A stretch of 64,000 nucleotides of DNA, taken from NCBI GenBank assembly GCA_020161775.1, contig JAIUOW010000005.1, positions 80,209 through 144,208 on the forward strand, in the 5' to 3' direction. Below are positions 2,205 to 39,953 of the stretch, in pieces. Numbering within the stretch: the first letter of the stretch is position 1; each line of letters starts with the position of its first letter. Made by a program: the position numbers and the translations under genes. The DNA comes from Pseudomonadota bacterium (GTDB taxonomy: Bacteria > Pseudomonadota > Gammaproteobacteria > Burkholderiales > Burkholderiaceae_C). The notes under the pieces were generated by a model that worked only from the letters and a program-made list of their open reading frames with translations, ran no database searches and had not been told where the DNA came from.

Positions 2205-2228
2205 GCGGGGGTCTCCTGGGAAGAAATA

Positions 2229-2243
2229 GAACGAGCGTTCGTT
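2229..2243. promoter_or_regulatory. short inverted repeat (GAACG-AG-CGTTC / AACGA-GCGT-TCGTT), possible operator upstream of the FadB-like gene
   Basis: Palindromic sequence gaacgagcgttcgtt lies 25-40 nt upstream of the ATG at 2204, in the divergent intergenic region. No regulator identified. Confidence 0.2.
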
Positions 2244-2454
2244 TTGGATTCTACGGGCTGGGTGTTGCAGTGCAATAAGGGCTTGTCTCAGGTGGGACAC
2301 GCCAGCCCGGATACCGCGGAAAGAGCCCCTAAGGGCCCCGACGATTTTGCTTGAGATTTGCCATCCGCATGTCATCCTAGGGGTGCCGGTGCGCACCCGT
2401 GGCGCCGCCGCGGGCAGCCCTGCACCGGACGTACCAGCTTCAAGGAGGATTTAA

Positions 2455-3123
2455 ATGTACGCAACCCTGCCCTATGCGGCCCCCGTCCTTGCGCCTTTCG
2501 CGCTCCCGCCCACCCATCCGGGCCCCGATGTGGACCTGACGGTCAAGGTCCTGCACACGCCCGAGCAGCGCCAGGACATCGCGCACCTGCGCAAGTACGC
2601 GGATTTCCGCTCCGAATACGAGGTCGATCCCGGCATGGCCGCGGTGGACCCGGTCAAGGACGCGCTGGGCCTGGTCATGGCCTTTTGCCGCGAGGGCGAG
2701 GCCATTGCCACCATGCGCTTCATCCCCACGGGCCATGGCATTACCCTGACCGAACGCTGGTGGGGTGGCTACGTGACTGACCCGGCCCTGCTGTCCCACC
2801 AGAGCTGGGAGGTGGGCCGCCTGGTCATGGCGCCCGAGCACCGCCAGGAAGGCCTGCTGCCCCAGTGCATGACCATGGCGTTTGTGCAGCTGCTCGAACT
2901 GGCCGACGTGCAGCACATGCACGCCACCTGCCACATGGCCATGACCCGCCTGTACCGGCGCTTTGGCTTTGGCATCCACGCCAAGCGCATCCATGGCGAC
3001 AAGGACTGCGCGCTGATCCACGGCCGCGTGGCGGATGTGGCGCGTTGCCTCAAGGTGCCGTTGCGCCAGGCCTTTGCCGCCCCCGCACAGGCCATTTCTG
3101 AGCAGGTGCCCGTGCTACAGTGA
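2455..3123 (+). CDS. GNAT-fold acyltransferase resembling autoinducer synthase / N-acyl amino acid synthase (LuxI/FeeM clan), copy 1
   Basis: Strong SD AAGGAGG at 2442-2448. The 222-aa product has motifs SWEVGRLVMAPEHR and TRLYRRFGF in its C-terminal half. It is a paralogue of the frameshifted gene at 16052..16710. Confidence 0.75.
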   Translation: MYATLPYAAPVLAPFALPPTHPGPDVDLTVKVLHTPEQRQDIAHLRKYADFRSEYEVDPGMAAVDPVKDALGLVMAFCREGEAIATMRFIPTGHGITLTERWWGGYVTDPALLSHQSWEVGRLVMAPEHRQEGLLPQCMTMAFVQLLELADVQHMHATCHMAMTRLYRRFGFGIHAKRIHGDKDCALIHGRVADVARCLKVPLRQAFAAPAQAISEQVPVLQ

Positions 3124-3140
3124 CCGGCCAAGGGAGTCAC

Positions 3141-5195
3141 ATGAAGGCGGCACTGCGCAACCTGTTCGAGTATTACCGCGCCCATCACGAAATGGAGCGG
3201 CCACTGCTGCAGTGGATCGGCGTGATGGGCTGCATCGCATTCCCGCTGTTCTATGTGATGCGGCGCGCCGTCGCCGCGCCCGGCTATGACGACCTGTGGC
3301 TGCGCCTGCTGGCTGCCGTGCTGTGCCTGGGCCTGGCTCTGCGCCGCCGCTGGCCGCAGCAGCTGCGCAGCTGGTACATCGGGTACTCCTGGTTTGTCGT
3401 CTTCTACTGCCTGGCGTTCTTCCTGTCCTACATCATGCTGCGCAACCACGGCGGCACGCCCGCGGTGGTGAACATGGTGGTGGGCGCCGTGCTGGTCATC
3501 CTGCTGGCGGACTGGCGCAACGCCATCACCATGCTGCTGGCCGGCTACATCGCGGCCGCCGTGGCGCACATGCTGACCGACCCGCAGCCCGAGCTGCTGC
3601 GCGAATTCATCTTCGCCGCTGGCGGCTCGTTGCTGCTGGTGGCTGGCGGCGCGCTGTACCACCAAGGGCAAAAGCGCGTGGAAATCCACCGCATGCGGCG
3701 GGTGTATTCGGGCTTGGCCGGCTCCATTGCCCATGAAATGCGCAACCCGCTGGCGCAGATACGCCATGCGCTGGACAGCATTGCCGCCACGCTGGCCGAC
3801 GGCACGCCCGGCGGCGGGCGCCAGCTGGACGCGGGCCAGGTCCAGGCGGTGCTGGCCATCGTGCAGCAGGGCCGCGACGCCGTGGCCCGTGGCCTGCAGG
3901 CCATTGACCTCACGCTGCAGCAGCTGCAGCCCCAGCCGCTGGAGGGCTCCCGGCTGCAATGGGTGAGCGCCCTGCCCGCGGTGCGCCGCGCGGTGGATTC
4001 CTTTGGCTACGACGAGCCGGGCCAGCGTGAGCGCGTGCGGGTACGTGATGACGGCGGCTTCAGCTTTCGTGGCGACCCGGCGGCGATCGAGCTGGTGCTG
4101 TTCAACCTGCTGAAGAACGCGCTGTACTACCTGCCGCTGTACCCGGCCATGACCGTGACCCTCACCGTCTCGGCACAGCCATCGCCGCGCATCGTGGTGC
4201 GCGACACCGGCCCTGGCATCCCGGCGGACCTGCTGCCCAAGCTGTTCCGTGAATTCCAGACCTCGGGCAAGGTCGAGGGCACGGGCCTGGGCCTGGCCTT
4301 TTGCCGCCGTGTGATGCAGGCGCTGGGCGGCGACATCCAGTGCCGCTCGGAGCACGGGCATTACACCGAATTCACGCTGTCATTCCCGCAGGCGGAACCA
4401 GCCCAGGTGGCGCCGCCGCCCGAGCCGGCGCCCGTCCAGCAGCCGCTGGCGGGCCGCACCGTGCTGGTGGTGGACGACCAGGCGCTGAACCGCGGCATTG
4501 CGCGCGGCATGGCCCGAAAGATGGGCCTGAACGTCATCGAAGCCGAGCACGGCCAGCAGGCGCTGGACCTGCTGGCCGGCGGTACCGTGCCGGACGTCAT
4601 CCTCATGGACATCAGCATGCCGGGGCTGGACGGCATCACAGCCACGCACCGCCTGCGCGGCATGCCCGGCGCGGCGGCCCGTGTGCCCGTGCTGGCGCTG
4701 ACCGCCAATGATTCAGCGGCGGTGCAGGACGCGGCCCGCGCGGGCGGCATGCAGGGCGTGCTGTGCAAGCCCATCGACGCCGCGGCGTTGCAGCGGGCGC
4801 TGGCCAGCGTGCTGCTGGCAGAGCCGCCCGCAGCGGCGGTGGGCTGTGCCCCGGTGCTGAACCTGCGGCGCATGGACGACATCCAGCGCCTGGGCCTGCT
4901 GCACGAACTGCTGCCAGGGGCGCTGGCCGACATGCGCCGGCACCTGCAGGCACTGGAGCAGGCGCATGAAGCGGGTCAGGCCGAGGGCGCCACCCAGGCG
5001 CTGCATGCGCTGGTGGGCCTGTCGGGCGAAGGCGGCGCGCAGGCCCTGCATGAGCGGGCCCGGCAGTGCTATGCCGACCTGCTGAACGGACAGCCGATGG
5101 ACGGTCAGGCCGTGGCAGACCTGCACAGGTTGCTGGCCGCCACACAGGAGGCGCTGTGGCGCCACTACGGGGTCCACCCGGCGGCGCCCGCCTGA
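3141..5195 (+). CDS. hybrid sensor histidine kinase (polytopic membrane sensor - HisKA - HATPase - REC - Hpt), copy 1
   Basis: ATG 3141 follows AAGGGAG. This start aligns MKAALRNLFEYYR with MINTWARLFAHYR of the paralogue; GTG 3120 is an alternative. The first ~190 aa are hydrophobic, with about 6 TM segments and short loops. Domain motifs: H-box SIAHEMRNPL, G2 box GTGLGLAFCRRV, REC DVILMDISMPGLDG, Hpt HALVGLSGEGGA. Confidence 0.85.
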   Translation: MKAALRNLFEYYRAHHEMERPLLQWIGVMGCIAFPLFYVMRRAVAAPGYDDLWLRLLAAVLCLGLALRRRWPQQLRSWYIGYSWFVVFYCLAFFLSYIMLRNHGGTPAVVNMVVGAVLVILLADWRNAITMLLAGYIAAAVAHMLTDPQPELLREFIFAAGGSLLLVAGGALYHQGQKRVEIHRMRRVYSGLAGSIAHEMRNPLAQIRHALDSIAATLADGTPGGGRQLDAGQVQAVLAIVQQGRDAVARGLQAIDLTLQQLQPQPLEGSRLQWVSALPAVRRAVDSFGYDEPGQRERVRVRDDGGFSFRGDPAAIELVLFNLLKNALYYLPLYPAMTVTLTVSAQPSPRIVVRDTGPGIPADLLPKLFREFQTSGKVEGTGLGLAFCRRVMQALGGDIQCRSEHGHYTEFTLSFPQAEPAQVAPPPEPAPVQQPLAGRTVLVVDDQALNRGIARGMARKMGLNVIEAEHGQQALDLLAGGTVPDVILMDISMPGLDGITATHRLRGMPGAAARVPVLALTANDSAAVQDAARAGGMQGVLCKPIDAAALQRALASVLLAEPPAAAVGCAPVLNLRRMDDIQRLGLLHELLPGALADMRRHLQALEQAHEAGQAEGATQALHALVGLSGEGGAQALHERARQCYADLLNGQPMDGQAVADLHRLLAATQEALWRHYGVHPAAPA

Positions 5196-5196
5196 A

Positions 5197-6677: not shown

Positions 6678-7969
6678 GTCATTGCCTCCCGGCGCTTGAT
6701 TTCCTTTTCGATGAACTCTTGTATCTCACCCCATTGGCGAGAGAACTCGCGCCGGGCGATTTCAAACAGGCCGATGCCGGTGGCGAGCACGAACACCGAG
6801 CCGAACCAGCTGTTCACGCTCCTGGTGTCCAGCACCGCGCCCATGAAGTTCAGCGTGCTGCCCTGCGCCGAATTGAGCTGCAGGTGATACACCATCTCGA
6901 TCATCGCGGCGGCGCCCGTCAGTGCCACCAGCGCCGTGACGGCCAGCGCCAGGTAGCTCACCCACAGCTCACGCAGCCGGCCGAAGGCGGCCACGCGCAG
7001 GTTCATCATGATCAGGCTGGCGATGCCGCCGGGCGCGTACATCACCATGAACAGGAAGATCAGCCCCAGGTACAGCAGCCAGGCCGAGGTGAATTCACTG
7101 AACAGGATGAATGCCAGCACCATCAGGATGGCGCCAATGATGGGCCCGAAGAAGAACGTGGCGCCGCCCAGGAAGGTGAACAGCAGGTAGCCGCCCGAGC
7201 GGGCCGCGCCCACCACTTCGGCGGTGACGATTTCAAAGTTGAGCGCGCCCAGGCCGCCCGAGATGCCCGCGAAGAAGCCCGCGATGATGAACGCCAGGTA
7301 GCGCACCTTCTGGGTGTTGTAGCCCACGAACTCCACGCGCTCGGGGTTGTCGCGCACGGCATTCAGGATGCGGCCCAGCGGCGTGCGCGTGAACGCATAC
7401 ATGAGCGCCACCGCCACGAAGGTGTACACCGCGATCAGGTAGTACACCTGGATCGGCGGGCCGAAGCTGATGCCCATGAACGGCTTGCCCACGACGCGGT
7501 TGGCATTGATGCCGCCTTCGCCGCCAAAGAACTCCGGGATCATGAGCGACATGGCGAACACCAGCTCGCCAATGCCCAGCGTGATCATGGCGAAGGTGGT
7601 GCCTGATTTGCGCGTGGTGACCCAGCCCAGGAGCGCCGCGAAGAACATGCCCGCCAGGCCCCCCACCAGCGGCACTGCCGACACCGGAATGGGCAGCGTG
7701 CCGGCGGACACGCTGTTGAGCGCATGGATGGCCAGGAACGAGCCCAGCCCGGTGTACACCGCGTGGCCAAAGCTCAGCATGCCGCCCTGGCCCAGCAGGA
7801 TGTTGTAGGACAGGCAGGCAATGATGGCGATGCCCATCTGCGACAGCATGGTGATGGACAGGCCGCTGGTGAACACCAGTGGCGCCAATGCCAGCAGCAG
7901 CGCGAACAGGCTCCAGATGATCCAGCGCCCGACATTGATGGGCTTGAATTCGTAGTAGTCTTTTTGCAT
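6674..7969 (-). CDS. livM: branched-chain amino acid type ABC transporter permease (LivM family)
   Basis: Polytopic membrane protein. Likely start MQKDYYEFKP (ATG 7969), just downstream of the livH stop at 7974. The ORF track extends to 8002. Confidence 0.8.
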   Translation of the reverse strand: MQKDYYEFKPINVGRWIIWSLFALLLALAPLVFTSGLSITMLSQMGIAIIACLSYNILLGQGGMLSFGHAVYTGLGSFLAIHALNSVSAGTLPIPVSAVPLVGGLAGMFFAALLGWVTTRKSGTTFAMITLGIGELVFAMSLMIPEFFGGEGGINANRVVGKPFMGISFGPPIQVYYLIAVYTFVAVALMYAFTRTPLGRILNAVRDNPERVEFVGYNTQKVRYLAFIIAGFFAGISGGLGALNFEIVTAEVVGAARSGGYLLFTFLGGATFFFGPIIGAILMVLAFILFSEFTSAWLLYLGLIFLFMVMYAPGGIASLIMMNLRVAAFGRLRELWVSYLALAVTALVALTGAAAMIEMVYHLQLNSAQGSTLNFMGAVLDTRSVNSWFGSVFVLATGIGLFEIARREFSRQWGEIQEFIEKEIKRREAMT

Positions 7970-7973
7970 GGCG

Positions 7974-9008
7974 TCAGCCCTCTCGCGTGCCCAGCAGGCC
8001 ACGGGGGCGGAAGATCAGGATCAGCACCAGGAACAGGTACGGCAGGATGGGCGCGACCTGCGACAGCGTGAGCTTGGTCAGGGTGCTGGCCTGCGCCGCC
8101 GCGCTGAGCTGGATGCCCAGCTGCGCGGCCACCGAGCCCACCGAATAGTCAAACGCCACGGCGAAGGTCTGGATGGTGCCGATCAGCAGCGACGCAATGA
8201 ACGCGCCCGACAGCGAGCCCATGCCGCCCACCACCACCACCACGAAGATCACCGACCCCACGGTGGCCGCCATGGACGGCTCGGTGAGGAAGGTGCTGCC
8301 GCCGATCACGCCGGCCAGGCCCGCCAGCGCCGTGCCCGCGCCAAACACCAGCATGAACACGCGCGGCACGTTGTGGCCCAGCGATTCCACCGCGTCAGGG
8401 TGCGTGAGCGCTGCCTGGATCACCAGGCCGATGCGCGTGCGCGTGAGCAAAAGCCACACCGACACCAGCATCACCAGCGCCACCAGCATCATGAAGCCGC
8501 GGGTGGCCGGGAACGGCGAGCACACCACCCGCACCGCGGCGTCCGCCGCCTGGCAGACGCCCGCGGGCGCGGCGCCCCACAGCAGCCGCAGGCCGTCCAC
8601 GGAATGGTTGATCAGCGTGAAGGCCGGGCCCTGCAGCACCTCGGGCGGGCGGAATTCCACCGCGATGCGGCCCCACACCAGCTGCACCAGCTCGACGATC
8701 ACATACGACAGGCCGAAAGTCACCAGCAGCTCGGGCACGTGGCCGTACTTGTGCACCTTGCGCAGGGACCAGCGCTCGAACATCGCCCCCATGGCCCCCA
8801 CCACCAGGGGCGCCAGCACCAGCGCGGGCCAGAAGCCCACCAGCTTGGCAATGCTGTAGCCCACGTAGGCGCCCACCATGTAGAAACTGGCGTGCGCGAA
8901 ATTCAGCACGCCCATCATGCTGAAGATCAACGTGAGCCCCGAGCTGAGCATGAACAGCAGCAGCCCGTAGCTCACCCCGTTGAGCATCGAGATGATGAAA
9001 AACTCCAT
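7974..9008 (-). CDS. livH: branched-chain amino acid type ABC transporter permease (LivH family)
   Basis: The 344-aa polytopic protein begins MEFFIISMLNGVSYGLLLFMLSSGLTLIFSMMGVLNFAHASFYMVGAY, typical of LivH-type permeases. Confidence 0.85.
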   Translation of the reverse strand: MEFFIISMLNGVSYGLLLFMLSSGLTLIFSMMGVLNFAHASFYMVGAYVGYSIAKLVGFWPALVLAPLVVGAMGAMFERWSLRKVHKYGHVPELLVTFGLSYVIVELVQLVWGRIAVEFRPPEVLQGPAFTLINHSVDGLRLLWGAAPAGVCQAADAAVRVVCSPFPATRGFMMLVALVMLVSVWLLLTRTRIGLVIQAALTHPDAVESLGHNVPRVFMLVFGAGTALAGLAGVIGGSTFLTEPSMAATVGSVIFVVVVVGGMGSLSGAFIASLLIGTIQTFAVAFDYSVGSVAAQLGIQLSAAAQASTLTKLTLSQVAPILPYLFLVLILIFRPRGLLGTREG

Positions 9009-9091
9009 GTCGTCCGACCTTCCTCGCCAATCAAAAATAAAGGAGCCCGATACGGTGCACCCGTACGGGCTCCTGTGTCACCCCGCCGGAA

Positions 9092-10324
9092 TCAGGGGCG
9101 CTTCATCTGGCAGCTGGTGGGCGTGCTGGACACGTAGTTGGGGTATTCCTTCAGCGGCACCAGCGTCATGCCGGTGTTCTCGGGGCTGTAGGGGTACTTC
9201 TTGTCGGCCTTCTGCCAGACCGTCACGTACAGCGGCTGCTGCAGCTGGTGGTCGGCCTTGCGGATTTCCACTTCGCCGTTGAAGCTCTTGACCTTGATGC
9301 CTTCCAGGGCCGCCGCCACCTTGACCGGGTCGGTGGACTTGGCCTGGGCCATGGCAGCGCCCAGCGTCTCGAAGATGCGGATGGTGGAGCCGGTGTAGAA
9401 GTCGTCCTTGTACTTGGTCTTGAACTCGTTCATCCACTTGTCCATCTGGCCGCCCATGTTGTAGTGGTTGTACGCCACCTGGTACACGCGGCCTGCGGCG
9501 GCCGTGCCCAGCGCCGTGGGCGTGCCGGTCACGCCGGCGTAGTACGTGAAGAACTTGCCGTTGTAGCCGCCTTCGTTGGCGGCCTTTACCAGCAGCGACA
9601 GGTCGGAGCCCCAGTTGCCGGTCACGACCGTGTCGGCGCCCGATGCCTTGATCTTGGCGATGTAGGGCGCGAAGTCGCGCACCTGGGCCAGCGGGTGCAG
9701 GTCTTCGCCCACGATCTTGATGTCGGGGCGCTTGCGGGCCAGCGTTTCCTTGGTGTACTTGGCGACCTGGACGCCGTGCGAGTAGTTCTGGCCCAGGATG
9801 TAGACGTTCTTGATGTCCTTTTGCTCGGCCATGAAGCTGGACATGGCTTCCATCTTCATGGAGGTGTCGGCGTCAAAGCGGAAGTGCCAGTAGCTGCACT
9901 TGCTGTTTGTCAGGTCCGGGTCCACGGCGGAGTCGTTCAGGTACAGCACTTCCTTGCCGGGGTTGCGCTCGTTGTGCTTGTTGATGGCGTCCACCAGCGC
10001 CAGCGCCACGGACGAGCCGTTGCCCTGCACGATGTAGCGCGCGCCCTGGTCGATGGCGGCCTTCAGTGCGTTCAGGCTTTCGGCGGGGCTCAGCTTGTTG
10101 TCAATGAAAGTGATGTCGAACTTCACGCCGGCCGGGTTGCCCGCGCCGCTGAATTTCTCGGCGAAGAACTGGTAGCCCTTCATCTGGCTCACGCCCACCG
10201 GGCCCAGCAGGCCGGTCAGCGGGTCGATGCGGACCATCTTGACGGTCTCGCCCTTCTGGGCAAATGCGGCGCCTGCGGCCAGCAGGATGGCGGACGCGGC
10301 GACGGCTTTGACGGCAAATTTCAT
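9092..10324 (-). CDS. ABC transporter periplasmic substrate-binding protein (Leu/Ile/Val-binding protein family)
   Basis: Start MKFAVKAVAASAILLAAGAAFAQ (signal peptide) with GGAGA upstream; the ORF track starts 4 codons earlier. Type I periplasmic-binding fold is inferred from its position at the head of the liv-type operon. Confidence 0.8.
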   Translation of the reverse strand: MKFAVKAVAASAILLAAGAAFAQKGETVKMVRIDPLTGLLGPVGVSQMKGYQFFAEKFSGAGNPAGVKFDITFIDNKLSPAESLNALKAAIDQGARYIVQGNGSSVALALVDAINKHNERNPGKEVLYLNDSAVDPDLTNSKCSYWHFRFDADTSMKMEAMSSFMAEQKDIKNVYILGQNYSHGVQVAKYTKETLARKRPDIKIVGEDLHPLAQVRDFAPYIAKIKASGADTVVTGNWGSDLSLLVKAANEGGYNGKFFTYYAGVTGTPTALGTAAAGRVYQVAYNHYNMGGQMDKWMNEFKTKYKDDFYTGSTIRIFETLGAAMAQAKSTDPVKVAAALEGIKVKSFNGEVEIRKADHQLQQPLYVTVWQKADKKYPYSPENTGMTLVPLKEYPNYVSSTPTSCQMKRP

Positions 10325-10493
10325 TGGTGTCTCCATGGTTGACTGACAGAGCGCAGGGTAAAGGTTTTTGTGCAGTGCAGCGCTCAGGGATTGCCCCTAA
10401 ACACAGGCGTTTCTATCGCCCATGTGACAGGGGCCAAAGTGGTGCGGGGGATGCGCGGGTGGTGTGTGGCTGGTGGTGTTCTGCAGTGCAGCT

Positions 10494-12125
10494 TCAAAGC
10501 CCGGGCAGCTTGTAGTCCTTGAGCATTTCACGCAGGCGGGTCTTCAGCATCTTTCCGGTCGCACCCAGCGGGATCGCCTCCACGAAGACCACATCGTCGG
10601 GCACCTGCCACTTGGCCACGGCCTTGCCCTTGTAGAACTCCAGCAGTTCTTCCCTGGTGACTTCGGCTCCGGGCTTTTTGACCACGGCCACGATGGGCCG
10701 CTCGTCCCACTTGGGGTGCGGCATGCCCACGCAGGCCGCCATGGCCACCGCCGGGTGCGCCACGGCGATGTTCTCGATATCGATGGAGCTGATCCATTCG
10801 CCGCCGGACTTGATCACGTCCTTGCTGCGGTCGGTGATCTGCATGTAGCCGTCGGGGTCGATCGTGGCAACGTCGCCGGTGGGGAACCAGCCGTCTTTCA
10901 GTGGGTCGCCGCCCTCGCCCTTGAAATACTCGCGCACGATCCAGGGGCCCTTGACGTACAGGTCGCCGAAGGCCTTGCCGTCCCACGGCAGCTCGGTGCC
11001 GTCGTCGCCCACGATCTTCATGTCCACGCCATAGATGGCCCGGCCCTGCTTGAGGCGGATCTTCATCTTGTCGGCGTCGGACAGCGAGAGGTGCTTGTTC
11101 TTGAGCGTGCACAGCGTGCCCAGCGGGCTCATCTCGGTCATGCCCCAGGCGTGCAGCACCTCCACGCCGTAATCGTCATTGAAGGCCGTGATCATGGCCG
11201 GCGGGCATGCAGAGCCGCCGATGACCGTGCGCTTGAGGGTCGAGAAGCGCAGGTTGTTGGGCTTCATGTGGCCCAGCAGCATCTGCCACACGGTAGGCAC
11301 CCCAGCGGCGTAGCTGACCTTCTCGGCTTCGATCAGCTCGTACACCGACTTGCCGTCCAGCGCCGGGCCGGGAAACACCAGCTTGGCGCCGGTGAGCGCG
11401 GCCGAATAAGGGATGCCCCAGGCATTGACGTGGAACATCGGCACCACGGGCAAGATGGCGTCGCGCGCCGACAGGCACATCACATCGGGCAGCGCCGCCG
11501 CATAGGCATGCAGGATGGTCGAGCGGTGGCTGTACAGCGCGGCCTTGGGGTTGCCGGTGGTGCCGCTGGTGTAGCACATGCTGGACGCGCAGTTCTCGTC
11601 AAAGCTGGGCCAGGCATAGCCAGTGGGCTGCTGGCCCAGCAAGGCCTCGTAGCTCAGCAGGTTGGGAATGCCGCTGTCGGCGGGCAGCTTGTCCGCGTCG
11701 CACAGCGCCACCCAGTGCTTCACCGTGGTGCATCGCGCATGCACCGCCTGCACGATGGGCAGGAAGCTCATGTCAAAGAACAGCACCTGGTCTTCGGCGT
11801 GGTTGGCAATCCAGACGATCTGGTCGGGGTGCAGGCGCGGGTTGATGGTGTGCAGCACGCGGCCCGAACCACTCACACCAAAGTACAACTCCAGGTGGCG
11901 GTAGCCGTTCCAGGCCAGCGTGGCCACCCGGTCGCCAAAGCCCAGCTTGAGGCTGTCCAGCGTATTGGCAACCTGGCGCGAACGCGCCGCCACGTCACGC
12001 CAGGTGTAGCGGTGAAGATCACCCTCAACGCGGCGCGAGACGATTTCGGCGTCGCCATGATGGCGCTCGGCGAAGTGGATCAGCGACGAAATCAACAGCG
12101 GTTGGCTTTGCATCAAACCCAGCAT
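10494..12125 (-). CDS. AMP-dependent acyl-CoA synthetase (long-chain fatty acid-CoA ligase family)
   Basis: AMP-binding motif [12 protein letters not shown] and motifs GWFPTGD and [16 protein letters not shown]. Likely start [11 protein letters not shown] (ATG 12125), preceded by AAGGAG. Confidence 0.9.
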
Positions 12126-12362
12126 GGGTACAGCTCCTTGGTGCGAAATGAATGACTGGATAAACGTGAATTGTTCATTCTGCTGCACCGCCAGCGCAAG
12201 CGATGTCGTGTTGTGGACATTTGATCAGCGTTAACCCTAGGGCCAGCGGCTACCGCACACTCGCGCCATGCTGGCCGACATCAGTCCGTTCGGGCGCATC
12301 GGCATCCTGCACGAAGCAGGCCTGACGGCCGTGGCCCACCAGCCGGCGCACGAGGCTGCGGA

Positions 12363-13529
12363 TCAGGATACCAGCGGCTTGAAGTAAAGCGTGACGGTGG
12401 TGCCCTGCCCCAGCTGCGACTGGATCTGGATCGCACCGCCCGCAGCCTGCATCACTCGCTGGCAGAACATCAGGCCCATGCCGTTGCCACCGCTGTCCGC
12501 GCGCGTGGTCACGGGCTCATGGGTCAGGCGCGCCAGCACATCGGGGGGTATGCCGGGGCCGTTGTCGGCAAAGCGCATCCAGGGCCGCCGCACGCCGTCG
12601 GCGTCCGCGGCGTCCTGGCCGACTTCAAGGCACAGGCTTGCGCCGGGCTGGCCGCGCAGCGCCAGCAGTGCGTTCTTGGTCACGGTGCATAGCACCAGGT
12701 ACAGCAGGTCGCGCCGGCCGGGCAGCTGGAAGTCGGCCTCGATCCGGCTGCTGACGCAGGTGTGTTCGTTCTCCTCGAACGGAAACTCGTCCAGCAGCGC
12801 GGCGACCAGCCCGCTGGCGTTGACGGTCTGCGGCAGGGCGCCAGGGTAGGCGTCGCGCGCCGACTGCACAAAGGTGGACACCAGCGACTGGCAGTACAGC
12901 GCGGCGCGCCCTGCCCTTTGCAGCGCGCCCACCAGCTGGCCGGGTCGGTCCTCGCTGAATTGCGCCACGCCCGCCGGGCCGTCAGGGCCGGGCGCCTGGT
13001 AGCGGTCAGCCACCGATCCGACGAAGCCCCGGATGGTGCCCAGCGGCGTGTTGAGCTCATGCGCCAGAAAGCCCAGCGTTTCGCGCAGGGCCGACACGCG
13101 GCCTTCGTTCAGGGCACGCTCAAACGACTGCGCGCGGTGCAGCGCCAGGGCCTCGCGCAGCGCTTCGCGCGTGAGCGTATCGTCCAGCGGCTTTTCCAGG
13201 ATGCGCAGCACCTTGCCCTGGTTGACGGCGGCAATGGCCACGTCTTTTTCGGCGTAGGCCGTGGCCAGCAGCCGGATCAGGTGGCGATGCTCGCGCTGCA
13301 CGGTGCGCAGCAGCTTCATGCCGTCCCGCTCGGGCATGCGGTAATCGGTCATCAGCACGGCAAATTCGTGCTCGCGCTGGCTGAGCAGGGCCAGCGCCTC
13401 GCCGGCGCCGCCGGCGGTGACGATGGTGAACTCGTCACCAAAGGCCCGGGCAAACCATTTGCGCGAGGTGGCTTCGTCGTCCACGAACAGGATGGCGCGG
13501 GGTTCCTGCAGCGATTCGGGTGCGAGCAT
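12363..13529 (-). CDS. response-regulator receiver fused to histidine kinase core (REC-HisKA-HATPase)
   Basis: N-terminal REC (ILFVDDE...LMTDYRMPERDGM), H-box LGFLAHELNTPLGTIRG and G2 box GNGMGLMFCQRVMQ. It starts 36 nt downstream of the hybrid kinase stop, so same operon. Confidence 0.85.
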   Translation of the reverse strand: MLAPESLQEPRAILFVDDEATSRKWFARAFGDEFTIVTAGGAGEALALLSQREHEFAVLMTDYRMPERDGMKLLRTVQREHRHLIRLLATAYAEKDVAIAAVNQGKVLRILEKPLDDTLTREALREALALHRAQSFERALNEGRVSALRETLGFLAHELNTPLGTIRGFVGSVADRYQAPGPDGPAGVAQFSEDRPGQLVGALQRAGRAALYCQSLVSTFVQSARDAYPGALPQTVNASGLVAALLDEFPFEENEHTCVSSRIEADFQLPGRRDLLYLVLCTVTKNALLALRGQPGASLCLEVGQDAADADGVRRPWMRFADNGPGIPPDVLARLTHEPVTTRADSGGNGMGLMFCQRVMQAAGGAIQIQSQLGQGTTVTLYFKPLVS

Positions 13530-13565
13530 GGGATTCAGGGCCGGTCAAGTCTGTGGAAGGTGGCC

Positions 13566-16055
13566 TCAGGCCGCGCGCAGGTGCGACACGCCCAGGGCGT
13601 ACTGGCGAAGCGCGCCTTCGGTGCGCACGGCCAGCGCGCGGATTTCGGCAGGCCAGTCGGCCCCACCGGGCCAGCGATGAGCTTCGAGCATGGGCACATA
13701 GTAGCTGCGCACGCGCTGGTACAAGGCGGCGGCACCCGCCTCGCCGCTCATGCCCAGCAGCGAATGCAAGGCGTCCAGGCCGGCGTCCAGGTCACCCTGG
13801 GCCACGGCTTCATCCAGCCGGTCCACAAGGCGCGCCATCTCCGGCAGGTAGTCGCCCAGCAGCTCGTCGATCATGCCCAGGCGCCGGTAGTTTTCAAGCC
13901 GCCGCGAGTCCAGCAGGTCGTCGATGGTGCCCGCCGGCGCCAGCGTGCCCTGCGCCACCGGCCGCACCGCCCTGCCCGTGAGCCGGCACAACAAGGTGTA
14001 CAGCAGGGACACATCCACCGGCTTGGTGATGAAATCATTCATGCCCGCCTCGCGGGCCGCGTTCACGGTGAACGCGTCGGAGTGCGCCGTCAGCGCGATG
14101 ATGGGCAGGCTGGCCAGCGCCGGGCCACTGGCGCGGATGGCGCGGGCCGTTTCCAGGCCGTCCATGCCGGGCATGTTGATGTCAATGACCAGTGCGTCCC
14201 ATTGGGCGCGCCGGCTGAGGATGTCCAGCACCTCGCCGCCATGGCTGGTCTCCACCACCTCGGCGCCGGCATGGCGCAGATGGGCCGCCACGGCCTTGCG
14301 GTTCCAGGCGCTGTCATCGGCCAGCAGCACAGCGCAGCCCGCCAGCAGCGCGGCACCGGCCGAGACGCCGGGGCGGGACAGCGCGTCGCACAGCGCCTGC
14401 ACCAGCACCCGCTGATCGCTGGGCTTGCTGACAAAACCGTCAATGCCGGCCTTTCGCACCTTGACGCCGGCCAGGTGCGCCGGCTCGCTGGTATGAGCCA
14501 CCAGGGCCACATCGCGGTTGGCGGGCGCGGCGCCCTGGCGTATGGCCGCAGCCAGCGCATAGCCATCCATGCCGGGCATGTTCAGGTCCAGCAGGACCAG
14601 GTCGTAATGCTCGCGCGTCAGCATCTGCATCGCTCGGTAGCCGTCGGCGGTTTCGTCCAGCGTGGCGCCCAGCGGCTGCAGCTTGTGGCGCGTGGTCAGG
14701 CGCAGGGCGGCGTCGTCATCGACCAGCAGGATGCGCCGGCCCTGCAGCACGCCGCGCGCCTGCGCCAGCACGGCGGCATGGCTGGCCTCGGCATCGGCCT
14801 GCGCCACGGCGGGAAAGCCCAGCGTGAACTCGGTGAACTCGCCGGGCACGGACGCGCATTCGATGCTCCCGCCAAAGGCCCGCATCACCCGCTGGCAATA
14901 GGCCAGGCCCAACCCGGTGCCGCCGGACTTGCCCATGGAGCGGAACGGCTCGAACAGGCCAGGCAGCACCTCGGGCGCAATGCCCGGCCCGGTGTCGCGC
15001 ACGCGCACCTGGTGCGGCTGCACGGTGATGGTCAGGCGCACACCGGGGTACTGGGCCCGGTAGTACAGCGCGTTCTTGATCAGGTTGAACAGCACGAACA
15101 GATAGGCGGTCTCGTCGCCACGGAAGCTGAAATCCTCCACCACGTCCACCTGCACGCTGCGCCGGGCATCGTCGTCCTCGTAGCTGTATTCCTGCACCGC
15201 CTTGCGCGTGGCCTCGGCCGCGGACAGGTGCGCAAAGCCGGCGGTGTCCAACGGCTTGGCATTGACCTCGTCCAGCGTCATGGCGATCACCTGCAGGCCG
15301 CGGTTGACCGCGATTTCGCTTTCGGCCAGGTGGCGGTACAGCGCATCGACCTCACGCCCGCCCAGGGTCTGCGGCTGCGCGGCCGCGCCGGGCGCGGGCA
15401 GTGCCTGCTGGATGTTGTGCAGGCTGTGCTTGAGCTGGGACAGCGGGTGGCGCATCTCGTGCGCGATGGAACCCGCCAGCGCCTGCGTGGCACGCAGCTT
15501 GCGCTCGGCGTCAATCTGCTCGGTGGAAAACTTGAACAGGTTACCGCCAATGACGATAAGGATGAACGCGGGCAACTGCGCGACCAGGTCCATGGGGATA
15601 CGGGGGTTGGGCGTGGTGGCCATGTAGATGCCCGCGGCCATGGCGACGCCGGTGAACAGCATCACCAGGGTGTTGCGCCAGTCGGTCAGCAGGACGAGGA
15701 AGCACAGGGTGATGAAGGCGTTGGAAATGGCGGGCACACCGCCGCCACGCTGCAGGGCCACCAGCGTTGTAAAGCATGGCAGGCAGTAGAGGACCGCGAA
15801 GTAGGAATAGGCGATGTAGTGCCGCTTGAACTTCTGGGGCCAGTGGTCCTTGAGTGCAAGAAGCGCCAGCATCAGGATGGCGCTGCCGCGCAGCAGGATG
15901 TCGTCGAACAGCTGGGCGTTGGGCCGCGTGAAGCGGATGAAGTAGAACACCAGCAACGAGACCACGCCCAGGTAGCCCATGTATTTGAGCCGCGGCGGCC
16001 CATAGGCGTGATAGTCGCGGTAGTGGGCGAAAAGCCTGGCCCATGTATTGATCAT
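13566..16055 (-). CDS. hybrid sensor histidine kinase (polytopic membrane sensor - HisKA - HATPase - REC - REC - Hpt), copy 2
   Basis: Hydrophobic N-terminal ~190 aa. Motifs: H-box SIAHEMRHPLSQ, GTGLGLAYCQRV, two REC domains (LLDLNMPGMDG and VIDINMPGMDG) and Hpt HSLLGMSGEAGA. ATGA overlap with the upstream GNAT stop. Confidence 0.9.
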   Translation of the reverse strand: MINTWARLFAHYRDYHAYGPPRLKYMGYLGVVSLLVFYFIRFTRPNAQLFDDILLRGSAILMLALLALKDHWPQKFKRHYIAYSYFAVLYCLPCFTTLVALQRGGGVPAISNAFITLCFLVLLTDWRNTLVMLFTGVAMAAGIYMATTPNPRIPMDLVAQLPAFILIVIGGNLFKFSTEQIDAERKLRATQALAGSIAHEMRHPLSQLKHSLHNIQQALPAPGAAAQPQTLGGREVDALYRHLAESEIAVNRGLQVIAMTLDEVNAKPLDTAGFAHLSAAEATRKAVQEYSYEDDDARRSVQVDVVEDFSFRGDETAYLFVLFNLIKNALYYRAQYPGVRLTITVQPHQVRVRDTGPGIAPEVLPGLFEPFRSMGKSGGTGLGLAYCQRVMRAFGGSIECASVPGEFTEFTLGFPAVAQADAEASHAAVLAQARGVLQGRRILLVDDDAALRLTTRHKLQPLGATLDETADGYRAMQMLTREHYDLVLLDLNMPGMDGYALAAAIRQGAAPANRDVALVAHTSEPAHLAGVKVRKAGIDGFVSKPSDQRVLVQALCDALSRPGVSAGAALLAGCAVLLADDSAWNRKAVAAHLRHAGAEVVETSHGGEVLDILSRRAQWDALVIDINMPGMDGLETARAIRASGPALASLPIIALTAHSDAFTVNAAREAGMNDFITKPVDVSLLYTLLCRLTGRAVRPVAQGTLAPAGTIDDLLDSRRLENYRRLGMIDELLGDYLPEMARLVDRLDEAVAQGDLDAGLDALHSLLGMSGEAGAAALYQRVRSYYVPMLEAHRWPGGADWPAEIRALAVRTEGALRQYALGVSHLRAA

Positions 16056-16710
16056 TGCGTCGTCCTCTCCCTATGACCAGCCGATACCGCTGCCCGCACC
16101 GAGGGCACATTACCATGGATCAGGGAATATGACTCACCCGACTGAAGGCACGCATCTTTGACAAGCACGGAAAACCCGAAGCGCCTGTAAAGACGGCTCA
16201 ATACCGGGGTGCAAGTCGCCAGAAAATTCGCTGAAGGAATCAGTTCAACGAAACGCATGAGCGTCAGGGAAAAGCAGGTTTTCAGGACTTCTGGCTGGGT
16301 GCGGTGCGCGGGTGCCAGAACGAGCCGCCCCACCTCCCAGCCATCGTCATACACCTGGGGTGCCAGTTGCGGCAACCCCTGGAGGATGGTGTCGCAGGGC
16401 GCAAGTCCGCGACCGATCGGGACGAGGCGGATGGTGCCGATGAACTCGCCGTGCAGTTCGAAAGCACCCACAAACCCCACCTCGTCTCTTTTTTTTCGAG
16501 CGCAACGAAAGCCGGGTCCTGCCTGACCGCGTCGGGCAGGCTGAGTTCTTCGCGCAGGTGAAGCACGCCGGCAATTGCCTGCGGCGTGGTCAGGTGGCGA
16601 AAACGTATTTCTTCGGTGCGGGGCTGCGGGTACCGCAGCGGATCGATGGCGTACGCCGCAGCCTGGCCCGAGCCAGGCTGCCACGAAGCCGGCGCGTGAT
16701 GTGTATTCAT
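16052..16710 (-). pseudogene. LuxI/FeeM-like GNAT acyltransferase, copy 2, interrupted by a 1-nt frameshift at an A8 tract (pseudogene, homopolymer sequencing error, or recoded gene)
   Basis: The N-terminal frame (ATG 16710 after AAGGGAG) reads MNTHHAPASW...AFVALEKK. The C-terminal frame reads RDEVGFVGAFELHGEFIGTIRLVP...GWEVGRLVLAPAHR...SRLYRRFGF, ending at 16052. The frames switch at T8 16489-16496. A9 would give a 219-aa protein colinear with the 222-aa copy 1. Confidence 0.8.
16489..16496 (-). repeat. A8 homopolymer (A_AAA_AAA slippery heptamer in the upstream frame) at the frameshift site
   Basis: Direct reading of ctcgtctcTTTTTTTTcgagcgc on the plus strand. Confidence 0.95.
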
Positions 16711-16932: not shown

Positions 16933-18696
16933 ATGTCCAGCACACGCGCCCGTTCGCCCGCAACGGCGGCTGCTGCCTGCCTGGCCGCGCTGACCCTCCT
17001 GGCGCCGGGCTACCCCAGGGCCCAGGCAACGGTCCCGGCGCCGGAGCAGGCGGCTCAGGAGGGCCTTCGCCGCCAGGAGCAGCGCAACCGGGAGCAGCAA
17101 AAGTCAGCCCAGCCGCAGGCAGACCAATTGAGGCACGAGGCAGCGCCCCTGCCAGCGCGCGAGTTACCGCAGGAGTCCCCCTGCTTCACTATCCATGAAC
17201 TGGCGCTGGGCGGCAGGGATGCGGGCCGCTTCGGCTGGCTGCTGGACGCAGCCCTGCCCTACCTGCGCCGCTGCGTGGGTGCCCAGGGGCTGAGCTTCAT
17301 TGCCGCTGGAATGGACCAGCAGCTGCGCGACCTGGGTTATGCCACCACCCGCGTGGCGCTGCCCGCGCAAAACCTGCGCGCCGGCCAGTTGCTGGTGCAT
17401 ATCGAAGCCGGCCGGGTGGCCGACATCCGCGCTGTCCGGGCGGACGCCGCACCCGGCACGCCTGACACGCCCGACACCCAATGGGGCACATGGCGCAACG
17501 CTTTTCCCGTCGCGGCGGGCGACATCCTGAACGTGCGCGACCTGGAGCAAGGCGTGGAGAACATGAAGCGCCTGCCCAGCCAGGCTGTGGCCACGCGGCT
17601 GGAGCCGGGCGACGCGCCCGGCTCCAGCGTGCTGTACATCGAGCGCAAGGGCGGCGCGCTGAAGGACCGCCTGCGCGGTGGCGCCACGCTGGACAACTCC
17701 GGTGGCGCAAGCCTGGGGCGCACGCAGCTGTCGGCCAACCTTGCCTTTGACAACCCTTTGGGCCTGAACGATGTCGTCACGGCCAGCCTGAACACCAACG
17801 CTGAACGGCCCACAGCCACGCACCGCAGCCAAGGCGCGAGCATCAGCTACAGCCTGCCCTGGGGCTACAACCTGCTGACGCTGCACGCCAGCAACAACCG
17901 GTTTGCGCAGTACGTCCAGGGAACGACCGTGCGTTTCCTTTCCAGCGGGCGCAGCCAGGGCGCCGAGGCGCGGCTGCAGCGCACGGTGCTGCGCACCGCC
18001 AGCACCAAGGTGGGCGTCTATGGCGCGGTGTCCACGCGACGGGCCATCAGCTATCTGGATGATGTGGAGGTCGTCATCCAGCGCCGGCGCACCACCAGCG
18101 TGGAAGCCGGCCTGAGCTACAAGCACCTGTTTGAAAAGTCCAGCCTGGAGCTGGACCTGGGCGTGCGCCGCGGCATGCCCTGGCACGGCGCGCAGGACGA
18201 CTTCGCATCTGCGCGCGAAGGCGGGCTCACGCTGCGGCCCAAGGTCTGGAGCCTGAGCGGCGCCTACGCCACAGATGTGACCCTGGCCGGGCGGGCGCTG
18301 CAATACAGCGTCCATCTGCGGGGCCAGCACACCCGCGACACCACGCTGTCGGCGGACCAGATGGCCATTGGGGGGCGATCCAGCGTGCGTGGCTTTGACG
18401 GCGACGCCGTGCTGCTGGCTGAAAACGGCATCGCCTTGCGCAATGAGCTCACCGCGCCGGTGAAGCTGTGGGACGGCATGGACACCGCCGCCCTGCTGGC
18501 CATTGACTATGGCCGCGTCTGGGGCCCCAGCGACATCCTGCTGACCGGCAAAAAGCTCGCCGGACTGGCGCTGGGCCTGAAGGGCCGCCGCGGCGCCACC
18601 CAGTTTGAGGTCACGCTGGCCACACCTCTTGCCAAACCCGATGGCTTTGCCACGCGGGACCTGAGCCTGTACCTCTCATTGACCCAGGGTTTCTGA
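16933..18696 (+). CDS. cdiB: two-partner secretion outer-membrane transporter (ShlB/FhaC/HecB family), CdiB
   Basis: Signal peptide MSSTRARSPATAAAACLAALTLLAPGYPRAQA and a C-terminal beta-barrel ending ...LYLSLTQGF. It lies immediately upstream (1-nt gap) of a TPS-domain exoprotein. Confidence 0.85.
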   Translation: MSSTRARSPATAAAACLAALTLLAPGYPRAQATVPAPEQAAQEGLRRQEQRNREQQKSAQPQADQLRHEAAPLPARELPQESPCFTIHELALGGRDAGRFGWLLDAALPYLRRCVGAQGLSFIAAGMDQQLRDLGYATTRVALPAQNLRAGQLLVHIEAGRVADIRAVRADAAPGTPDTPDTQWGTWRNAFPVAAGDILNVRDLEQGVENMKRLPSQAVATRLEPGDAPGSSVLYIERKGGALKDRLRGGATLDNSGGASLGRTQLSANLAFDNPLGLNDVVTASLNTNAERPTATHRSQGASISYSLPWGYNLLTLHASNNRFAQYVQGTTVRFLSSGRSQGAEARLQRTVLRTASTKVGVYGAVSTRRAISYLDDVEVVIQRRRTTSVEAGLSYKHLFEKSSLELDLGVRRGMPWHGAQDDFASAREGGLTLRPKVWSLSGAYATDVTLAGRALQYSVHLRGQHTRDTTLSADQMAIGGRSSVRGFDGDAVLLAENGIALRNELTAPVKLWDGMDTAALLAIDYGRVWGPSDILLTGKKLAGLALGLKGRRGATQFEVTLATPLAKPDGFATRDLSLYLSLTQGF

Positions 18697-18697
18697 C

Positions 18698-21600
18698 ATG
18701 CACCCACGCACCCGAGCGATCCTCAACCGCCTGGCGCAACGCCTGAGCGCTGCAGACCATGCACTGAAAACCCAGCTGACCCAGCCGATGTCAGGCCCTG
18801 CACCACGCCCCTGGCTGCGCCGCGTGGCCCGGGTGTTCACATCGCTGTTCATTGCGCAGACCGTGATGGCTGGGGTGCCCGCGTATGCGCAAGTCACCGC
18901 CGCACCCGGCGCGCCTGCTGGCCAGAAGCCGTTGATCGACGCGGCGGCCAACGGCACCCCCATCGTGCTGATCGCGCCGCCCAGCCAGCGCGGCGTCAGC
19001 CGCAACCAGTACGACCAGCTCAACGTCGGCCCCAAAGGCCTGATCCTGAACAACAGCACCGCCAATGTGCAAACGCAGATCGGCGGCTGGATCAGCGGCA
19101 ACCTGCAGCTGGGCCGCACACCGGCGCGGATCATCCTGAACGAAGTCACCGGCCCTCAGGCCAGCCAGCTGCGCGGCACGATCGAAGTTGGCGGACAAAA
19201 AGCCGACATCGTGATCGCCAACCCCAACGGCATCACCTGCAGCGGCTGCGGCTTCCTGAACGCGGACCGCGCCACGCTCACCACCGGCACACCGCAGATC
19301 GGCGCCAACGGCACGGTCACCGGCTTTGACGTGCGCCAGGGCGTGATCCAGATCGGCCCCGAAGGCTTGAACGCAACCGAACAACAGCAGCTGGACCTGC
19401 ACGCCCGCGGCCTGGTGATTGAAGGCGAGGTGTACTCGCAGAACCTGCAGGCCGTGATCGGCGCCAACCAGGTGGTTTACGGCACGCTGCATGCGCTGGT
19501 GCAGGCCACCGCGCAAGACGGCACCGGCGAGGCGCCGCGCCTGGCAGTGGACATCAAGGCGCTGGGCGGCATGTATGCCGGGCAAATCTACCTGATCGCA
19601 ACCGACAAAGGCCTTGGCGTCAACAGCACCGGGCGCGCAGCCACCCTGTCGGGCAACCTGGTGCTGTCGGCCAACGGCGACCTGACGCTCAAGGACACCT
19701 ATGCAACGGGCGATGTCCGGCTCGCGTCGGCCGGCAAGACCACCCTGACGGGCCAGACCGTGGCTGACGGCGCGGTGACCATCAACGCCGGGGACCAACT
19801 GACCCACAGCGGTGCGCTGCAGGCGCCCACGCTGCAACTGAACGCCCCTGCCCTGCACAACAGCGGCAGCATCACCCAGACGAAGGCAGGCGCCAACCTG
19901 GGGCTGACGCTGCCCGGAGGCCTGAACAACAGCGGGCAAATCTACACGCCGGGCAACCTGACGGTGCAGGCTGGCGCCGTCAGCACCGGCGCAGCCCATG
20001 GAACGATGACAGGCCAGCTGAGCGCCGGAGGCTCCCTGCAGGTATCGGCCGCCCAGCTGCAACTGACCGGGCAGCAACTGGCCGCCAACGGCAACATCAC
20101 CCTGGACGCCAGCGGCAAGCTGGACGTGACAGGCACCACCGTATCGGCCAACGGGCAGACCCGGTTGGCCGGTAGTGAAATCGCGCTGGAGCGTGCGCGG
20201 ATTGCGGCTGTGGGCAATGTGCAGATCACCAGCCAGGGCGTGGTCACGGCGAACGCGGCGGACATCAGCAGCAACGCGACGCTCAGCGTCCAGGGCAGCC
20301 GTGTAGATGTCAGCGCGGCCACCATGACGGCCGTGGTCACGGCCAGTATCAAGGCGGACGGTGAAATCAAACTGGACGGCAGCCAGCTTGCCGCGGGCCA
20401 GCGCGTGGAGCTGGTGGGCCAAGGCATCAGCACGCCCGGCGCGACGGTCACCGCAGACAAAATCACCATCGACGCAGGCGCGGGCGCACTGACCAACCCC
20501 GGCGGCAAGATCCTGGCCAGCTCCGCTGAAGCGGACGCGCTCACGGTCAATGCGACCGGTATCACCAACCAGGGCGGCGAGCTGCGCGCCAATGGCGGGC
20601 TGACGCTGGACGCACGCGGCGGTGTGATCGACAACACGGCAGGCGTGATCGCGGGCACCACCGGCGCGTTGACCAACCTGGGCGGCCTGACCAACAAGGG
20701 TGGCATCCTCTACACGCAAAGCGACCTCTCCATCGCCAGCACCGCGCTGGACAACAGCGAAGGCGCCATCGTCACCGCCGGCAGCCTGAGCGTCAGCACG
20801 CCCGGCCAGACCATCAACAACACCAAAGGCCTGATGCAGGCGGGCGGCTCGGTCAGCCTGGACAGCGGCAGCGCGGACCTGAAGAGCGCGGACGGTACCG
20901 TCGTGGCAGGCACGCAACTGACGGTCAACGCCGGTACGGTGGACACGGCGGAAGGCACGCTGGCCGCGGGCACCGACATGACCGTGACGGCGGGCCAACT
21001 GCAGGCGGGCAGCGCCAAGCTGGGCAGCGGCGGGGCCATGAACATCACGGCCAGCGGCAATGCCGGCTTGGGCACGGCGGAAGTCGGCGCCGGTGGTGAT
21101 CTGTCCATTCAAGCCGGTACCGTGCAGGCCACCGGCGCCAACGTGGCCAGCAACGCCAATGTGCAGGTCACCGGCGGCAGCATCACCGGCGGCAACTGGT
21201 CAGCGCAAGGCAACCTTGCGGCGACCAGCGCGGGTGCGCTCAACGTCACGGGCGGCAGCCTGCTGGCGGGCGGAGACCTGACAGCACAAGGCCAGGGCAT
21301 CGTCACGGACAACGCCAGGCTGGGCGGCCAGACGGTCACGCTGAACGCGGGCACGGGCGCCTTGAGCAATGTGGGAGGCCAGATCCACGGCAGGGCCAAC
21401 CTGCACATCCAGGCCAGCCATCTGGCCAACCGCAACGGCACGGTGGCCACCGGCGGTGCCCTGACGCTACAGGGTGCCGCGCTGGAGAACCACGCGGGCA
21501 CCCTGCAGGCCGCGGGCAACCTGACCATCCATACGGCAGGCCAGGCCCTGGACAACACCGCAGGCAAGATCATCTCGGGCGGCAACACGATCGTACAGGC

Positions 21601-35161: not shown

Positions 35162-35168
35162 AAAACCT

Positions 35169-39937: not shown

Positions 39938-39953
39938 ACCTCAGGATATCCCT

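Follow-up and report, generated by a model that had tools for sequence, protein, structure and literature searches.

An invariant A8 run divides an acyltransferase-like gene at the head of a quorum-sensing-type kinase operon in Burkholderiales and probably marks programmed recoding

We analysed a 64,000-nucleotide stretch of DNA (the window; contig JAIUOW010000005.1 of assembly GCA_020161775.1, positions 80,209 to 144,208) from a bacterium of the Burkholderiales, in which a minus-strand operon combines an acyltransferase-like gene, GNAT2, with two kinase genes. GNAT2 is divided between two reading frames at a run of eight adenines (A8), and the same break recurs in related loci of seven genera. 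The operon probably represents a synthase-sensor-relay module of the quorum-sensing type, the first gene of which is expressed by programmed recoding. On comparative grounds, namely the slippery site at the junction, the homologous parts on both sides of it and the conserved direction of the shift, we consider -1 recoding of GNAT2 to be the best reading of the break. The three genes of the operon are (nt, nucleotides; aa, amino acids):

16052..16710, minus strand: GNAT2, acyltransferase-like gene, whole span, 659 nt in two frames
13566..16055, minus strand: HK2, hybrid kinase, 829 aa, with six hydrophobic segments within aa 23-177, H-box H199, HATPase, REC1 D490, REC2 D625 and Hpt H764
12363..13529, minus strand: REC-HisKA-HATPase protein (REC-kinase), 388 aa, soluble and PhcR-like according to Pfam and homologue labels, with D62 and H157

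The original prediction had placed these genes in the order GNAT2, HK2 and REC-kinase, with an ATGA overlap and a 36-nt gap, and all of this is borne out by the coordinates: the TGA of GNAT2 (16054-16052, in the -1 frame) overlaps with the start of HK2 as ATGA, and 36 nt separate HK2 from the REC-kinase gene. The overlap, the 36-nt gap and the conserved synteny lead us to infer co-transcription of the three genes. A scan for promoters and terminators gave matches no commoner than in shuffled sequence. The presence of GNAT2 as the first gene also stands, while its continuous open reading frame (ORF) does not, as the earlier reading had run across the frame break at the A8 run. The parts of the gene are as follows:

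16489..16710, minus strand: GNAT2 N-part, zero frame, from ATG 16710 to K74 (GAA AAA AAA = 16497-16489), comprising strand 1 and helices 1-2 of the GNAT fold
16489..16496, minus strand: candidate recoding site, A8 run in the context G-AAAAAAAA-GAGAC, where a -1 shift or an extra A would join E72 K73 K74 to R75 D76
16052..16489, minus strand: GNAT2 C-part, -1 frame, from AGA (16489-16487) to TGA (16054-16052), 145 codons, with the invariant motifs WEVGRLVL and RLYRRFGF
16282..16488, minus strand: zero-frame read-on past A8 to the stop at 16284-16282; without a shift the product has 142 aa, its tail being non-homologous

An AGGGAG motif lies 7 nt upstream of the ATG at 16710, and the 659 nt from 16710 to 16052 leave a remainder of two on division by three. 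Within the context ctc GAA AAA AAA G AG ACG, re-reading of the last A (AGA GAC...) yields a 219-aa protein that reads ...ALEKK/RDEVGFVGAF... across the junction (slash), and the addition of one A yields the identical protein. This fusion aligns over 198 columns (residues 17-215) with GNAT1, an in-frame paralogue encoded elsewhere in the window, in which the equivalent of the junction reads ...VDPVKDALG... The exact HK2 protein is present on at least 22 contigs (JGI, ENA and Logan samples). The A8 run was found in all 8 independent metagenome contigs of this strain that were fetched, and a metagenome pattern scan permitting A6-A12 in this strain's context returned one more contig, also with A8. 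Sequencing or assembly error could be ruled out as the cause of the split, because A8 recurs both in these contigs from different samples and in isolates of different projects, altogether ~70 species from many projects.

To map the extent of the break we use a search of one genome per species, cultured isolates included, which gave 77 related loci (numbered with L) in Ramlibacter, Caenimonas, Paraburkholderia, Polaromonas, Hydrogenophaga, Ralstonia (R. psammae) and Acidovorax, and also in Burkholderia sp. H160; frames were assigned by running tblastn for the N-part and for the C-part individually. At 70 of the 77 loci, across seven genera, the frame of the C-part is shifted by -1 against that of the N-part, and the N-part is kept in frame 0 at 70 or more. 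In essentially all of the 70 loci the junction DNA reads G-AAAAAAAA-GAGA(C/T), while the flanking codons vary freely. Over 71 distinct species sequences the column entropy of G-A8-G is 0, and from one side of the site to the other the most variable codon phase (wobble) changes by exactly -1. Every one of the 70 A8 loci has, past the site, a -1 ORF of 139-181 codons without interruption. Judged by sequence comparison, both parts of GNAT2 are under purifying selection, the ratio of nonsynonymous to synonymous substitution rates (dN/dS) between the window and its nearer relatives L009-L013 being 0.12-0.16 for the C-part and 0.12-0.62 for the N-part.

The nucleotides of the site are also at odds with the codon usage of the window, in which AAA makes up 15% of the Lys codons and AGA 2% of the Arg codons; from this usage, the probability that EKKR is written as GAA AAA AAA AGA is ~2e-4. 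Only two A or T runs of at least eight occur in the 64 kb, and the A8 of GNAT2 is one of them. The A8 clade is old; pairwise identity among its C-parts drops as low as 34%. Across the loci the zero-frame stop lies 6-97 codons past the site and its position is not conserved, which suggests that the non-shifted product is probably a by-product. No locus carries an in-frame A9: L069 has A7, and L079 has A9 followed by GG and still needs a -1 shift. In two genomes designated 'complete', R. terrae H242 (L063, CP053418; A8 plus extra disruptions downstream) and Ramlibacter sp. MMS24-I3-19 (L069, CP190017; A7), the neighbouring kinase genes are likewise fragmented in tblastn, suggesting that both anomalies are assembly indel errors and not real variants. 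A search of a plasmid collection for annotated relatives matched none.

A few relatives carry the gene in a single frame. L086 (protein P0100) and L056 encode EKKRD at the junction as GAA AAG AAG CGC GAC and GAA AAG AAA CGA GAC, respectively, L088 (P0006) encodes EQRRD as GAG CAG AGA CGC GAC, and L051 keeps the A8 run and has lost two bases after it. Their nearest A8-type kin are 63-83% identical to them, well above the clade median of 48%, and they are thus independent reversions nested in the recoded clade. At the level of comparative sequence, these nested in-frame relatives identify the trans-frame EKKRD protein as the functional product. In line with this, the database entries for most of the 120 best homologues are 124-160-aa C-terminal fragments or wrong-frame extensions, gene annotation being systematically misled by the frameshift. 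Much of the family is thus wrongly annotated, and its association with kinases is readily overlooked.

The structural prediction for the fusion is in agreement with a single chain. AlphaFold2 gives a mean predicted local distance difference test score (pLDDT) of 83 and a predicted template modelling score (pTM) of 0.79, and places junction residues 73-76, at ~94, inside the helix formed by residues 66-78, where the blocks average a pLDDT of 89-94; in this model the fusion folds as one GNAT domain. Foldseek comparison with the PDB retrieves GNAT-fold enzymes, with FeeM (2g0b) among the highest (TM 0.55, TMq), and the alignments to GNATs cover ~170-200 columns compared to the 145 residues of the C-part alone. 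The nearest structures are generic GNATs, e.g. SpeG and PA3270. The Pfam FeeM model (PF21926, cutoff 27) scores 32.0 bits with P0100 and 25.5 with P0006. When the family profile is compared with the PDB sequences, the sole match is the acyl-homoserine lactone (AHL) synthase TofI, weak at E = 0.21, with WEVGR aligned to WELSR. The repaired GNAT2 is a GNAT, and these relatives and profile matches suggest an affinity to FeeM and LuxI that is transitive and weak.

Two routes would lead to the shifted product. RNA polymerase may slip on the T8 template and add one A, giving an mRNA with A9; alternatively, the ribosome may slip by -1 on A_AAA_AAA. Both fit the comparative data equally, as the EKKRD product and the nucleotide constraints would be the same and the choice of GAA and AGA would be explained by either. 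A fixed minority of expression events would shift by -1, and the others would give a truncated N-terminal peptide with a non-conserved tail. There is precedent for recoding at poly-A in dnaX, by transcriptional slippage on A9 in Thermus thermophilus and by ribosomal frameshifting on A_AAA_AAG in E. coli (PMC3711429; PMC5009743). In the Mg-chelatase cluster of Pseudomonas, Burkholderia and Delftia, runs of A7, A9 and A11 gave 10%, 40% and 63% frameshifting, respectively, in E. coli reporters (PMC3711429).

GNAT2 resembles these poly-A recoded genes (dnaX and the Mg-chelatase cluster) in its conserved A-rich run at the ORF junction, in the -1 direction, in the homology of both ORFs to single-chain proteins and in being a non-mobile chromosomal gene in Betaproteobacteria. 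It differs from them as an acyltransferase gene that heads a two-component operon and has no detected downstream hairpin, and its zero-frame product is seemingly functionless, in contrast to the gamma product of dnaX. We did not find the GNAT2 family in the GeneTack paper, two of its supplementary files or a 2016 recoding review, and neither that paper nor that review mentions frameshifting in FeeM, NasY or LuxI-type proteins. Full-text literature, which included few subscription journals, yielded no recoding in this family and no FeeM-like synthase paired with a hybrid kinase. We know of no report of frameshifting in the FeeM/NasY or LuxI-type families.

The assignment to a quorum-sensing type of module comes from the genes that accompany the putative synthase. 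Hydropathy analysis of HK2 shows six hydrophobic segments, joined by very short loops and running directly into the H-box; this N-terminal transmembrane (TM) domain matched no known family. The best NCBIfam match of HK2 is LuxN_Vibrio with 256 bits (cutoff 1550), over model positions 452-829 and thus the kinase core only, while JGI labels the protein CqsS. For homologues of the REC-kinase, JGI gives the label 'response regulator PhcR'. The layout of the REC-kinase itself is of the PhcR type, a soluble protein with an N-terminal receiver followed by HisKA and HATPase, without a DNA-binding domain and with its gene 3' of those for a synthase and a sensor kinase. Genes for an HK2-type kinase and then the REC-kinase come directly after the recoded synthase gene in most loci of Ramlibacter and Caenimonas. 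Next to these, most of the same loci have an acyl-CoA-ligase-like gene that is 82-96% identical (72% in L063, a fragmented assembly); conservation at this level suggests that it is probably a neighbour with a housekeeping role.

The phcBSRQ operon of Ralstonia encodes a synthase, a sensor kinase, a REC plus kinase protein that lacks a DNA-binding domain and, as a fourth product, a single REC, and its output regulator PhcA is encoded elsewhere (PMC8578825). Its order of synthase, membrane sensor kinase and soluble REC-kinase is the same as in the GNAT2 operon. In contrast, the synthase is a GNAT here and a methyltransferase in PhcB, the HK2 sensor is a hybrid with two REC domains and an Hpt, and a PhcQ gene is lacking; the PhcR likeness of the REC-kinase is one of architecture, synteny and JGI label. 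As in Vibrio LuxM/LuxN and CqsA/CqsS and in Legionella Lqs, a synthase adjoins a multi-TM hybrid kinase with the H-box right after the last TM segment. Unlike LuxN and CqsS, HK2 carries an additional REC and an Hpt of its own, and it scores far below the family cutoffs and in the kinase core only. GNAT2 is unrelated to CqsA, which is a pyridoxal-phosphate-dependent enzyme. With FeeM/NasY and the LuxI-type AHL synthases it has in common the GNAT fold, the relatives that match Pfam FeeM and the similarity of WEVGR to WELSR of TofI, whereas the overall sequence similarity is marginal. By analogy, the operon can be described as a two-component quorum-sensing-like module rather than as an established Phc, Lux or Cqs system.

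Some loci deviate from this arrangement. In Paraburkholderia (L057, L066, L068, L076, L081 and L085) a 218-aa Haem_oxygenas_2 gene, annotated 'iron-containing redox enzyme', lies between the frameshifted synthase and the kinase (L057:6509-7165), and no REC-kinase gene follows downstream. Its product may be a tailoring enzyme for the signal. One metagenome-assembled genome has an extra HK1-like kinase gene between those of the HK2-type kinase and the REC-kinase (L044:9033-10706), HK1 being the paralogue of HK2 in the window.

In the mechanism that we propose, the GNAT2 enzyme, with its FeeM/LuxI-like affinities, would make a lipophilic N-acyl compound that is sensed in the membrane by the six-TM domain of HK2. 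Phosphate would then pass from H199 to REC (D490 and/or D625), on to Hpt H764, to the PhcR-like REC-kinase and finally to an output encoded elsewhere. The recoding step would hold down the synthase in relation to the receptor, which shares its mRNA, and it could tie signal production to the state of transcription or translation.

Several results weigh against this picture. The repaired GNAT2 itself has no Pfam FeeM match at E<=1, and only its relatives reach the model. RNAalifold, run on 71 sequences over the 60 nt before the site and the 60-100 nt after it, gave no conserved structure, and the mean z-scores of the minimum free energy were -0.5 to +0.1 relative to codon-position shuffles. An upstream Shine-Dalgarno-like stimulator was not noticed by eye in the varied sequences, for which no formal scan was made. 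As no RNA stimulator was found, a stimulated mechanism of the dnaX type is unsupported and the efficiency of the frame change may be low. Several lineages have reverted to a plain in-frame gene, so recoding is, by this comparison, dispensable at least sometimes. We infer the product of the enzyme, the sensing of this product by HK2 and the route of phosphotransfer. The missing stimulators are compatible with transcriptional slippage, which needs none, or with unstimulated low-level frameshifting. An Rfam scan of 10-19 kb gave a chance miRNA match only, and a tRNA scan of the window, in which tRNA-Lys was sought, found zero tRNA genes.

The strongest of the competing explanations accepts the recoding and takes GNAT2 not to be a signal synthase; the enzyme would instead acylate, for example, a protein (the kinase itself) or a membrane lipid, and the kinase would sense something else. 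Its nearest structures, SpeG and PA3270, are indeed generic GNATs, and the repaired protein misses the FeeM model. Its relatives, however, exceed the FeeM cutoff (P0100 with 32 bits, GNAT1 with 30.6), and the sole PDB sequence match, weak as it is (E 0.21), is the AHL synthase TofI. Further points for a signal synthase are the tight and wide pairing of the enzyme with a six-TM kinase and the gene for a tailoring-type redox enzyme between synthase and kinase in Paraburkholderia. We regard the non-synthase explanation as rather unlikely, and as the most probable of the rivals.

Phase variation, in which DNA replication slippage would toggle the run between A8 (OFF) and A9 (ON) with the sampled genomes all in the OFF state, appears quite improbable. 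Genes of this kind normally display both states among genomes, whereas A8 is present at 70 loci, in all 8 contigs of this strain and in the one further metagenome match, and an in-frame A9 at none. In its favour, homopolymeric runs are well-known contingency loci, and DNA polymerase slips readily on poly-A/T (PMC3711429). The run length does differ at L069 (A7) and L079 (A9 + GG), but L079 still requires -1 and the assembly of L069 has fragmented neighbours.

Alternatively, the N-part (~74 aa plus tail) and the C-part might be two polypeptides that assemble into a split enzyme with the frame unchanged. Split GNATs are conceivable, and in some loci gene callers place GTG or ATG starts at '(G/M)VGAF'. 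The best start-codon column is, however, filled in only 29% of the loci, and in 32 of the 70 the stretch from the last -1-frame stop to 8 codons beyond the junction contains no possible start at all. The tail read in the zero frame shows no conservation, the in-frame relatives are single chains and the junction falls inside one helix, so that we consider a split enzyme very improbable. An independent start for the C-part was ruled out, there being no conserved start codon among the 70 loci. Least probable of all is a pseudogene, in which a one-base deletion would have inactivated the synthase and the kinases alone would matter: gene callers and databases list mostly 140-156-aa fragments, the window annotation apparently lacks a full-length product and GNAT1 might suffice, but the identical lesion is found across seven genera with 70 of 70 downstream ORFs free of secondary stops, a dN/dS of 0.12-0.16 and a site that is nucleotide-invariant against codon usage.

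Programmed recoding of a putative signal synthase is thus the reading that we retain as probable. The second module of the window, on the plus strand, provides an in-frame counterpart:

2455..3123, plus strand: GNAT1, 222 aa, in-frame paralogue without an A run; Pfam FeeM (PF21926) 30.6 bits (cutoff 27)
3120..5195, plus strand: HK1, hybrid kinase, paralogue of HK2, with one REC (D497) and Hpt (H629)

Pfam assigns HATPase_c, two Response_reg stretches and an Hpt at 24.5 bits (cutoff 24.6) to HK2, HisKA, HATPase_c, one REC and a weak Hpt at 21 bits to HK1, and REC, HisKA and HATPase_c without a DNA-binding domain to the third protein. The earlier count of three kinase cores, four REC and two Hpt domains across both modules agrees with this, with the Hpt scores of HK2 and HK1 sub-cutoff or weak. 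The phospho-acceptors H205, D497 and H629 are present in HK1, and every conserved Asp and His likewise proved to be in place in HK2 and the REC-kinase. HK2 had been described as having the architecture of HK1 with one more REC, which indeed shows as an insertion in the alignment. The identity of about one third estimated by eye became 32% for GNAT1 and GNAT2 and 33% for HK1 and HK2 in formal alignments. That the two modules are old paralogues is supported by these values and by the occurrence elsewhere of GNAT1/HK1-type modules as a separate in-frame lineage (L082 and L084, whose kinases match HK1 at 54% and 49%). The earlier proposal that two signal channels run into a common relay gained no support here. 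HK1 and HK2 each carry their own Hpt, and the synteny with a REC-kinase is restricted to the HK2-type module. An output domain had been reported as lacking from the window, and we found no response-regulator output domain in the ~30 larger ORFs scanned. Apart from the two modules, these include FadB-like, LIV-type ABC transporter, acyl-CoA-ligase-like, FhaC/FhaB, SelO, IspA, peptidyl-prolyl isomerase (PPIase), PurL, GlnD, LigA and SMC proteins.

The surroundings of the operon contain two further blocks. At 105-12188 lies a block of fatty-acid-related genes on which both the GNAT1-HK1 module and the GNAT2-HK2-REC-kinase module converge; the block may supply acyl substrate or may be there by coincidence. 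On the other side, 5' of GNAT2, a divergently transcribed two-partner-secretion (TPS) locus occupies 16933-35489:

105-2396: FadB-like gene, in the fatty-acid-related block
5197-10336: LIV-type ABC transporter, in the fatty-acid-related block
10494-12188: AMP-binding acyl-CoA-ligase-like gene, 82-96% identical in nearly all related loci
16933-18696: FhaC/ShlB, two-partner secretion
18698-35161: TPS/haemagglutinin-repeat (CdiA-like) ORF, 5487 aa
35169-35489: small ORF in a lower-GC stretch (0.56), holding the only other A8 run of the window (35328)

The two-partner-secretion locus has the look of an island inserted here. The genes for IspA and PPIase lie at 38973-40739 in the window; in Ramlibacter sp. 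PS3R-8 (L016) they adjoin the recoded operon. Among strain variants with identical HK2 (L002-L006, locus at ~660-5123), several have FhaC cut to 332 aa and flanked by an IS21-type transposase and IstB, and in L003 FhaC is replaced by KfrA, TetR and ABC genes. The stretch 5' of the recoded gene is a rearrangement hotspot.

It is conceivable, and we put this forward tentatively, that the A8 site serves as a regulatory device in which the efficiency of the frame change gates an autoinducer synthase expressed from the same operon as its receptor. If so, growth rate, nucleoside triphosphate pools or the supply of tRNA-Lys might modulate the frame change. The comparative evidence for the site is unusually clean, with an invariant motif in ~70 species and nested in-frame relatives as natural controls. 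To our knowledge, conserved recoding in non-mobile bacterial chromosomal genes is rare, the cases including prfB, dnaX and a few others. What is new here is A-run recoding in a new non-mobile gene family together with a quorum-sensing-type operon that has a new synthase-sensor pair; each of these kinds is already known. Isolates are available in Ramlibacter, Caenimonas soli, C. koreensis, Paraburkholderia oxyphila and P. monticola, making this a tractable system in which to ask why a frame change would throttle a signal synthase. The findings point to a synthase and receptor, a pair not described before, in Burkholderiales that are common in soil and water. If the regulatory reading is true, this would be a quorum-sensing circuit controlled by recoding, with a new class of N-acyl signal and, as its sensor, an uncharacterised family of six-TM kinases that is widespread in these bacteria.

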